Source: Escherichia coli (GTDB lineage Bacteria; Pseudomonadota; Gammaproteobacteria; Enterobacterales; Enterobacteriaceae). From it: a DNA stretch of 64,000 nt. Numbering within the stretch: position 1 is the stretch's first letter; each line of letters begins with the position of its first letter. The stretch is taken from assembly GCF_011045215.1 (NCBI RefSeq), contig NZ_CP049201.1. The stretch is one strand, 5' to 3'. This document shows positions 34,771-36,190 of this stretch, piece by piece. Under the pieces are notes generated by a model. That model worked only from the letters and a program-made list of their open reading frames with translations, ran no database searches and was not told where the DNA came from. The position numbers were made by a program, and so were the translations under genes.

Positions 34771-35171
34771 TGTAGTGATTTTGCACGCAGCACGTACTGT
34801 CAGAGAAATCAGTGCTCTGACAGTACGCAAGATCTTCTCATACTCTCCAGGTTTACAACATTATCCTTAATATTTACTTCTTTTTGCTGGTATCTACATT
34901 GAAATGAGTAGAAAACATCCCCCTACTGTCGTCTATACAAACAGCTTACTGATTCAAAGGGAATCTTGTTTTCACATTTTTCTATCATGAATACTTTATA
35001 CGCGCGGGAGTCTATAAATGCTTTATACTTTCAAGGAATAACGTAAATATAAAAAGATGGCGTGAAGTATATGCATGGCAGGATGTTTGCAACCTCCTTG
35101 ATGACGCTGCCCCATTGAAATTGCAAACCCCGCCCTGGTTATCTTGCCCATTTATCATGCAAAACAGATAA

Positions 35172-35981
35172 TTATAGGCCTCTGAATACCTCAGAAAGAT
35201 TGAATTTTTTATAGTCCCTCTCTTGAATATTTCCATTTGAAATCAATCGATTCATCTCTTCAACAAAATAATTTATATCATCACACTTGTTATTATCCGG
35301 AAGATCTGAGTAGTTATAATTCCACCATTTTATTCTCAACAGTTCATCAATAACATTTGAATCAAACCTAAATCTGATTATTTTTGCAGGAACTCCTGCA
35401 ACTATGGCATATGGGGGCACATCTTTGGTAACAACGGAATTGGCAGCAATAACAGCACCATCACCTATTACGATGCCACCTTTCAATACAACATCATTTC
35501 CTATCCAGACATCATTTCCTATAATCGGATTTTCAGGTTTGGTAATGAATGGTTTCAATGTCCAGCTACGTTCAAACTCACTCATAGCAAACTTATCAAA
35601 TTCACCGTTATAAGTCATCATGTGAGTAGTAAAACGATTCAAAGGATGATTTCCACCCATTATTTTTACATTTGATGCAATACTACAAAATCGACCTATA
35701 CGTATATTCCCTGAAAAATGACAGGTCGGAAATGAAAAAGCGCCGACACTGGAGAAATTTTTTACAGGCATTGTTGAATATTCTTCAGCAATAACATTAT
35801 CTTCAATTGTTATCTTGTCACCTTTTGAGAAAAGAAATAAATTCCTTTCTTTATAAGACTTCTTCCCCTTATGATTTAAAAAGATTTTATTATCCATACA
35901 AAACTCAAAGTGTTTTTTCGTCCATCTGAAGGTAAGGGTTTTATTTTTATCTTCCGTGAATTTGTACAATTGAACTTTCAT
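35172..35981 (-). CDS. Hexapeptide-repeat xenobiotic acetyltransferase (XAT family; resembles Vat streptogramin A acetyltransferases / CatB); start uncertain (alternative ATGs would give about 241 or 199 aa)
   Basis: C-terminal block [69 protein letters not shown] closely parallels the recalled VatD/SatA core; [10 protein letters not shown] His region also present; AT-rich gene. Confidence 0.7.
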   Translation of the reverse strand: [269 protein letters not shown]

Positions 35982-36190
35982 TGTTAATACTTCTACTTAT
36001 AAATTATTAGTTTAATAACAATACTCTAAAGCCTTATGCTAATCAACTGTGACAGGATGAAAAATCGCCATCAAACATTTAGTCTAATTTTTACGCTAGT
36101 TATTAATGTAATCATTCTAATACTTAACCGCCATTAAACTCAGAACCTAAAACGATAGTGGCCGTCCTATAACAGCCACTAACATCTAAC

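Follow-up and report, generated by a model that had tools for sequence, protein, structure and literature searches.

The stretch analyzed here, referred to as the window, comprises 64,000 nucleotides of the Escherichia coli contig NZ_CP049201.1 (RefSeq assembly GCF_011045215.1). Between two core genes of the window, yncL and patD, lies an AT-rich segment with an intact, ATG-started open reading frame (ORF) for a hexapeptide-repeat protein of 269 amino acids (35172..35981, minus strand; ORF listing with translation). An earlier note on this DNA, made from the letters alone, had described an AT-rich segment there with a hexapeptide-repeat protein of this length, and all of the motifs that it quoted were found in the translation. 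It had also classed the product as a Vat/CatB-like xenobiotic acetyltransferase (XAT). The protein was found to share the fold class of those enzymes and to fall outside their families, in a clade of longer proteins termed long-form here. In a reading that we consider evenly balanced between right and wrong as a whole, it is a soluble, probably trimeric, acetyl-CoA-dependent long-form O-acetyltransferase for which a carbohydrate hydroxyl is a likelier acceptor than an antibiotic. The features of the locus are as follows.

34675..34770, plus strand: yncL, the core gene that flanks the segment on the left (ORF listing, and RefSeq annotation of a locus 99.9% identical).
34793..34827, no strand: perfect hairpin with a 13-bp stem (inverted repeat, identical in K-12).
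34847..34859, no strand: 13-nt patch CCAGGTTTACAAC, 7 positions of which differ from the TACGATCTGCAAT of insert-less strains (alignment).
34866..34871, no strand: left copy of the direct repeat CTTAAT, a target-site duplication or a deletion microhomology (junction comparison with K-12, NC101, O157, and ECCNB12-2).
34872..35171, minus strand: non-coding 300 bp, 3' of the acetyltransferase gene.
35172..35981, minus strand: gene for the 269-amino acid long-form XAT-like (Orf11-like) left-handed β-helix O-acetyltransferase.
36018..36046, minus strand: σ70-like candidate promoter, with −35 element TTGATT (36046..36041), 17-nt spacer, and −10 element TATTGT (36023..36018) (multi-genus alignment).
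36156..36181, minus strand: hairpin plus T-rich tract, immediately past the stop codon of patD (terminator scan and inverted repeat).
36190..36195, no strand: right copy of CTTAAT, within which lies the stop codon of patD (plus-strand TTA, 36191-36193) (ORF listing and junction comparison).
36191..37615, minus strand: patD, the core gene that flanks the segment on the right; it precedes the acetyltransferase gene in the same orientation (ORF listing and RefSeq annotation).

The GC content fell to 0.28-0.39 over ~34600-36250, compared with ~0.52 in both flanks, and was 0.331 in the acetyltransferase gene (0.285 at third codon positions) as against 0.533 in patD (0.537 at third codon positions), in keeping with the AT-rich insertion described in the earlier note; the DNA looks foreign. 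In K-12 EMG2 the spacing between yncL and patD is only 96 bp and the segment is absent, as the note had supposed; the extra DNA relative to K-12 amounts to exactly 1,324 bp (34872-36195 or, equivalently, 34866-36189). In RefSeq, the locus that is 99.9% identical (L001) likewise has the gene between yncL and patD, annotated from the same ATG; the start codon was a point that the note had wanted checked. The product is named there “CatB-related O-acetyltransferase”; “antibiotic acetyltransferase,” “streptogramin A acetyltransferase,” and “CatB-related” are all labels in use for the gene, and they suggest a role in antibiotic resistance. Literature searches by the RefSeq protein accessions and the RefSeq product name returned nothing on it.

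The protein has a Pfam Hexapep match (E = 4.9e-10), and its hexapeptide repeats form a left-handed β-helix, which places it in the hexapeptide-repeat acyltransferase superfamily. An AlphaFold2 model was obtained with a mean predicted local distance difference test (pLDDT) score of 90.7. Residues ~15-60 constitute an N-terminal module, residues ~75-205 the β-helix with a central loop that carries His112-Pro113, and residues ~206-269 a set of C-terminal helices with W219-W220. The XAT architecture consists of a β-helix, an extended central loop with a catalytic His, and a C-terminal α-helical region (PMC7885111), and the central loop with His112, the W219-W220 pair, and the C-terminal helices are all present, consistent with an XAT in the broad sense. 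His112 aligns with H82 of VatD, H79 of CatB3, and H106 of Orf11, which answers a question about the catalytic His that the note had posed, and Trp159 aligns with W121 of VatD. The catalytic residues are invariant, and conservation extends over the full length of the protein, across Citrobacter, Cedecea, Providencia, Rahnella, and other genera.

The best sequence matches in the Protein Data Bank (PDB) were Vat(D), Vat(A), CatB, and ApmA, which bears out the resemblance to the Vat catalytic core that the note had pointed to; these matches cover residues ~60-230 only. The N-terminal 84 residues gave no PDB match with E < 0.3, and the family profile matched ApmA over the core only; the protein is therefore best described as an XAT catalytic core with clade-specific N- and C-terminal additions. 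Full-length structure matches (TM-score 0.76-0.86 over ~260 columns) were all to uncharacterized long-form proteins, one of them from Campylobacter peloridis, and no solved structure of any long-form member was found in the PDB comparison. The long-form clade is widespread, and its members are ~260-276 amino acids long. They carry an additional β-α-β module at the N terminus and an extended helical tail at the C terminus. They have His-Pro where Vat and CatB have His-Arg, and their central loop is longer by ~10 residues. The long-form fold also occurs in fusions with glycerophosphodiester phosphodiesterase and ATP-grasp partners (AFDB50 entries A0A0V8E142 from Lactococcus lactis, 663 amino acids, and A0A0S3EYZ9 from Sphingobium baderi, 1,013 amino acids), and some Campylobacter and Helicobacter versions of 375-391 amino acids carry an additional PF28160 domain. 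Such fusions may hint at substrates.

The family placement was examined with a neighbor-joining tree of 35 sequences (248 columns, 100 bootstraps). Annotated plasmids supplied the reference sequences, which were VatD, CatB3, CatB2, two further Vat proteins, and one further CatB. Vat and CatB split from all long-form proteins with 100% bootstrap support, and the E. coli protein lay outside both the Vat and the CatB clades. It grouped with the Citrobacter and Cedecea proteins (100%) and then with those of Providencia and Kluyvera (99%). The internal nodes that link this group to the Campylobacter Orf11 clade had bootstrap values below 50, both groups being on the same side of the 100% split.

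Comparison with curated NCBIfam models led to the same placement. The protein scored 124.6 bits against the Vat model NF000311 (cut-off 300), 91-111 bits against the models for Vat(A) to Vat(I) (cut-offs 400-475), 105.7 bits against the CatB model NF000490 (cut-off 350), and 83.4 bits against the ApmA model NF000084 (cut-off 550). With Vat (Vat(D), 1KHR; Vat(A), 4HUR) it shares the left-handed β-helix fold (probably as a trimer), the catalytic His of the central loop, the Trp at position 159, and the IGNDVWIG...KWWN core, at 31-35% identity over ~170-195 residues. In contrast to Vat, it has ~60 more residues at the N terminus and ~25 more at the C terminus, His-Pro in place of His-Arg, and the longer central loop. 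MAFFT and HMMER alignments further showed that the “YSYY” Tyr of Vat and CatB (Y37 in VatD, Y42 in VatA) is replaced by Thr70 in the E. coli protein and by Ala63 in Orf11; Tyr68, two residues upstream of Thr70, is conserved. Unlike CatB (PaXAT, 1XAT; CatB3; CatB8; Vibrio cholerae VCA0300), the protein lacks the YSYYSGYYHGH region and has extra terminal modules, and its gene is chromosomal, without integron or plasmid association. The alignment with ApmA (7JM0, 7UUJ) is confined to the core (residues 72-230 against 96-257), and ApmA has no match to the N-terminal 84 residues. Of the description “Vat/CatB-like,” the fold class thus stands, whereas membership of either family does not, given the scores below cut-off, Thr70, and the 100% bootstrap separation.

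These comparisons bear directly on the possibility that the gene encodes a cryptic modifier of an antibiotic or other xenobiotic in the manner of Vat, CatB, or ApmA, with a streptogramin A, a phenicol, an aminoglycoside, or some other natural product as its substrate and with resistance as a possible result of its expression. Such a function would be compatible with the conserved catalytic His and Trp159 and with the occurrence of the gene as a stand-alone, AT-rich singleton at unrelated loci across genera, as for a self-sufficient detoxification gene, and ApmA provides a precedent for an XAT with an extra N-terminal domain that gained a new antibiotic substrate (PMC7885111). Against it stand scores that fall far short of what every curated Vat, CatB, and ApmA model requires, exclusion from the Vat and CatB clade at 100% bootstrap, and an N-terminal module without a sequence match to ApmA or any other PDB chain, as well as the replacement by Thr70 of a Tyr that stabilizes the oxyanion in VatA (PMC7885111). 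The gene was not found on genuine plasmids or in phages when plasmid and phage databases were searched, and the region upstream of it contains no leader ORF, leader peptide, or attenuator. Streptogramin A is, moreover, poorly active against E. coli. The earlier note had proposed a comparison with resistance databases; on a PLSDB record with a 97%-identical copy, neither AMRFinderPlus nor RGI/CARD flagged a resistance gene. An antibiotic-modifying function consequently appears doubtful, though by no means negligible. The record in question, NZ_CP141089.1, was the single plasmid match (97%) and is 4.94 Mb in size, evidently a mislabelled chromosome of the kind that inflates plasmid counts for chromosomal genes.

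One line of evidence that points to a carbohydrate acceptor comes from Campylobacter. The Campylobacter lari homologue (P0107) gave 168 bits against the E. coli protein, compared with 107 bits for VatD, and its gene ends a run of CST-I sialyltransferase, neuB, neuC, and neuA genes, overlapping neuA. The Campylobacter jejuni homologue (P0127; 276 amino acids, 1,560 database members) is encoded within the gene order cgtA, GT2, cst (cst-II), neuB, neuC, neuA, P0127, GT2, GT9. We take this position to be that of orf11 in the class A lipooligosaccharide (LOS) locus, and the GT2 and GT9 genes that follow to be waaV and waaF. In BLASTP the E. coli protein aligned with P0127 at 40% identity over 195 residues (143 bits, E = 6e-46). 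An hhalign run between the Enterobacterales family and the Orf11 family of Campylobacter returned a probability of 100 (E = 2.4e-63) over 245 columns, residues 17-267 aligning with residues 5-266, so that the profile alignment takes in both the N-terminal module and the C-terminal tail. The two proteins therefore share their architecture over the full length (N-terminal module, β-helix, long central loop with His-Pro, and C-terminal helical tail) and are similar in size, at 269 and 276 residues. Orf11 is reported, in passages of PMC8319020 and PMC3513307 that cite Houliston et al. 2006, to be a sialate O-acetyltransferase with acetyl-CoA as donor and C-9 of terminal α-2,8-linked sialic acid as the site of acetylation.

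Orf11 is the sole experimentally characterized long-form member that we identified. The caveat in the earlier note that many homologues have other substrates was apt. The closest characterized relative is this enzyme, which is not antibiotic-modifying. The RefSeq name of the E. coli protein, “CatB-related O-acetyltransferase,” is carried also by Orf11 and by the product of a gene in the kps capsule locus of ST131 and is for that reason uninformative on substrate. Differences between the E. coli protein and Orf11 were also apparent. The N-terminal modules have no similarity detectable by BLAST, the sister-group relation of the two lacks bootstrap support, and orf11 lies in a sialic-acid LOS locus, in translational coupling with neuA, whereas the E. 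coli gene is a singleton. Other soluble hexapeptide-repeat O-acetyltransferases that act on sugars, namely NeuO, OatWY, LacA, and Maa, resemble the E. coli protein in this general respect, and in E. coli NeuO, too, is encoded by an accessory gene that stands alone. Their similarity to it is, however, much weaker and confined to the C-terminal coils of the β-helix (~150-205; E = 1e-10 to 1e-13), and they lack the C-terminal WW helices of the XAT type.

The best NCBIfam E-value was obtained with TIGR03308, a phosphonate-metabolism hexapeptide transferase, which is the top match not only of the E. coli protein (130.2 bits) but of the Providencia, Rahnella, and C. lari proteins as well (122-133 bits). 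A role in phosphonate metabolism would follow if this assignment were taken at face value. All of the scores are nonetheless below the curated cut-off of 201.65, the match is limited to the β-helix core (residues 92-228), and no phn genes flank the gene in any locus examined. The match appears to be generic because the C. lari protein, encoded in a sialic-acid LOS locus, receives it too. We give the phosphonate reading hardly any credence.

On the basis of the family placement, a carbohydrate hydroxyl, whether of a sialic-acid-like or another sugar and whether in a surface glycan or free, is with modest confidence a likelier acceptor than streptogramin A or chloramphenicol, by analogy with Orf11. 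By analogy with the solved XATs, the protein would act as a cytoplasmic enzyme in which acetyl-CoA is bound in the tunnel between adjacent β-helices of the trimer and His112, on the central loop, serves as general base on the acceptor hydroxyl. The acceptor pocket may then owe a shape unlike that of Vat or CatB to the long loop and to the N-terminal module specific to the clade. A narrower version of the carbohydrate reading is that the protein is a sialate (nonulosonate) O-acetyltransferase in lineages that do not make sialic acid, acting on scavenged free or glycan-bound sialic acid or on a sialic-acid-like residue of lipopolysaccharide; at this level of detail, the proposal must be regarded as improbable.

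Several observations weigh against a carbohydrate acceptor. No neu or sialyltransferase genes lie beside the E. coli gene or elsewhere in the window, and the homologues in E. coli, Citrobacter, Cedecea, Rahnella, Dickeya, Photobacterium, and Vibrio and on a JGI metagenome contig are singletons without sialic-acid or polysaccharide genes nearby, a pattern that chromosomal vat and catB-like detoxification genes show as well. The identification of P0127 as Orf11 rests on gene order rather than on a published accession. Furthermore, function cannot be transferred safely from Orf11, given an identity of 40% and bootstrap values below 50 at the deep nodes of the tree.

The genomic contexts of the relatives are diverse. 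The Citrobacter orthologue lies between a GNAT gene and a PNP_UDP_1 (nucleoside phosphorylase-family)-MFS-Tsx cluster, that of Rahnella between a chemoreceptor gene and an M20 peptidase gene, and that on the JGI contig after icd. The Cedecea orthologue is located between a chemoreceptor gene and DUF1889, near a colicin gene. Other settings include phage or satellite genes (Dickeya), sbcCD (Photobacterium), and sugar-catabolic genes (Vibrio), each adjoining the homologue. These singleton contexts suit a self-sufficient enzyme and point to no pathway. In Cedecea, a colicin (PF01024) and colicin-immunity gene pair was noted 1.5 kb downstream of the orthologue (L006, 8300-9906), and its proximity suggests that this orthologue, too, lies in a variable accessory region.

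Among family members, neu or sialyltransferase genes were found nearby only in Campylobacter, with the addition of a GT52 gene in Providencia. The Providencia orthologue, which is 53-55% identical to the E. coli protein and belongs to the same 99%-supported subclade, is divergently paired with this GT52 glycosyltransferase gene in two prophage or defense-island settings. Of the more distant homologues, that of Alteromonas adjoins rmlA, rmlC, and rmlD, and that of Aureibaculum adjoins Wzx-like, FnlA-like, and WbcJ-like genes. Like the Campylobacter LOS loci, these settings link members of the clade to glycans. In Providencia rettgeri (L008 and L009, 4785-7721) the arrangement takes the form of a trio that comprises the GT52 glycosyltransferase, the acetyltransferase orthologue, and a 250-amino acid protein without a Pfam match. 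One copy of the trio lies beside DarT and NADAR (DarTG) genes and the other beside genes for a reverse transcriptase, an AAA ATPase, and an integrase. The trio may be a prophage-borne module for surface-glycan modification located in a defense hotspot.

The distribution of the segment in E. coli was determined by megablast of 34500-36400 against 5,426 complete E. coli genomes. The locus was present in 5,415 of these and the full segment in 1,154 (21%), among them O111:H8 strains. The earlier note had supposed the gene to be strain-specific; it is instead an accessory gene at the level of lineages. The pangenome comparison that the note had called for showed the segment between yncL and patD in every one of the 1,154 carriers. 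In a scan of one genome per species, no other Escherichia species had the gene, and the nearest proteins outside E. coli were those of Citrobacter (79-80% identity), a Raoultella metagenome-assembled genome (77%), and Enterobacter sp. Ag1 (70%). A 1,576-bp contig binned as “Collinsella sp.” (JAIJJM010000727.1, L016) was 99% identical to the E. coli insert, including the non-coding flanks, and is almost certainly a mis-binned E. coli fragment.

Two haplotypes were distinguished in E. coli by the downstream 298 bp, ~957 genomes being 95-99% identical to the window and 195 being 90-95% identical, and both have identical junctions. Between the window allele and that of strain MSB1_7C, the acetyltransferase gene showed 21 nucleotide and 7 amino acid differences, corresponding to a dS (synonymous substitution rate) of 0.094, a dN (nonsynonymous rate) of 0.011, and a dN/dS of 0.116. 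These values indicate purifying selection on the gene. The stretch of patD next to it differed to the same extent between the two strains (96.3% identity). Given that the insert alleles have diverged as much as the adjacent patD (96-97%) and that the junctions are identical, the segment is evidently old and a long-term resident beside its flanks.

The alternative that the gene is a silent, decaying remnant of horizontally acquired DNA is difficult to reconcile with these values, and also with a full-length gene in ~1,150 complete genomes, with the full-length conservation and invariant catalytic residues across genera noted above, and with promoter elements conserved across genera. What might be seen as decay consists of shortened versions in databases (P0021, P0024, P0026, and P0028) and an interrupted downstream region in one genome (H75), and a GC content of 0.33 would be consistent with silencing by H-NS. 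On balance, we regard a remnant as very unlikely.

At the junctions, the direct repeat CTTAAT would fit both insertion (gain) and microhomology-mediated deletion (loss) equally well. A transposable or integrative element was considered as the origin of the segment and rejected: apart from this 6-bp repeat, the segment shows no transposase, integrase, terminal inverted repeats, or second family-matched ORF. The 13-nt patch at 34847-34859 is identical in both insert-bearing haplotypes and differs at 7 positions from the sequence of all four insert-less strains examined (K-12, NC101, O157:H7, and ECCNB12-2), the flanks being otherwise 96-100% identical between strains. A simple insertion or deletion model does not account for the patch. 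Within the segment, the 300-bp non-coding stretch is single copy, occurs in E. coli only together with the acetyltransferase gene, and is without homologous DNA at the loci of Citrobacter, Raoultella, and Cedecea. A search for non-coding RNA gave no Rfam match in the segment at E values up to 1, and a check for an anti-phage defense role gave no PADLOC match. The yncL-patD interval is also a target of insertion sequences, as illustrated by an IS1A copy in the empty site of NZ_CM173443.1 (laboratory strain LAM_HS). The genome in which the downstream region of the segment is split (H75) is that of EC291.

The acetyltransferase gene is co-oriented with the ydcSTUV-patD operon and located downstream of it. 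Alignment of the upstream regions from E. coli, Citrobacter, Raoultella, Cedecea, and Enterobacter revealed a promoter-like element ~37 nt upstream of the ATG in which the GTTGAT and T.G..TAT columns are invariant. The cross-genus conservation of this TTGATT/TATTGT element suggests that it is a functional promoter, which would give an untranslated leader of ~30-37 nt. DNA homology to the closest loci, those of Citrobacter and Raoultella, takes in the gene and no more than ~85 bp of the DNA preceding its ATG. With a conserved promoter-like element and a short leader devoid of a leader ORF, the gene looks like a self-contained transcription unit. Identity between the two E. coli haplotypes is only 87% in the non-coding stretch upstream of the conserved promoter-like element, and the second haplotype (the MSB1_7C type, ~195 genomes) has a 13-bp insertion GATCATAATAACT (plus-strand alignment) there, at ~36091 (L012, ~2100).

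The hairpin at 34793-34827 would act in K-12 as a bidirectional terminator common to yncL and patD; in the window it probably ends the yncL and acetyltransferase transcripts. The hairpin at 36156-36181 is a putative replacement terminator for patD, brought by the inserted DNA. The insertion would accordingly rewire 3'-end formation of the ydcSTUV-patD operon, patD receiving a hairpin supplied by the insert where K-12 patD shares one with yncL.

Since the protein belongs to none of the Vat, CatB, and ApmA families, it would be wrong to score the ~21% of E. coli genomes with this gene as carrying a resistance determinant. The gene is otherwise an ordinary, mildly interesting accessory gene that is already annotated. 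The interest of the finding lies in the clade, which is large and has almost no functional characterization; one tested member acetylates sialic acid, and this provides a concrete and cheaply testable substrate hypothesis. Were the improbable sialate O-acetyltransferase proposal to prove correct, the sialate esterases NanS and NanS-p would have their biosynthetic counterpart in this enzyme, which would also be a player not recognized before in gut sialic-acid ecology and surface mimicry. More generally, modification of a surface or scavenged sugar by the enzyme, if it occurs, could have consequences in the carrier lineages for antigenicity, for the adsorption of phages, or for cross-feeding on sialic acid.

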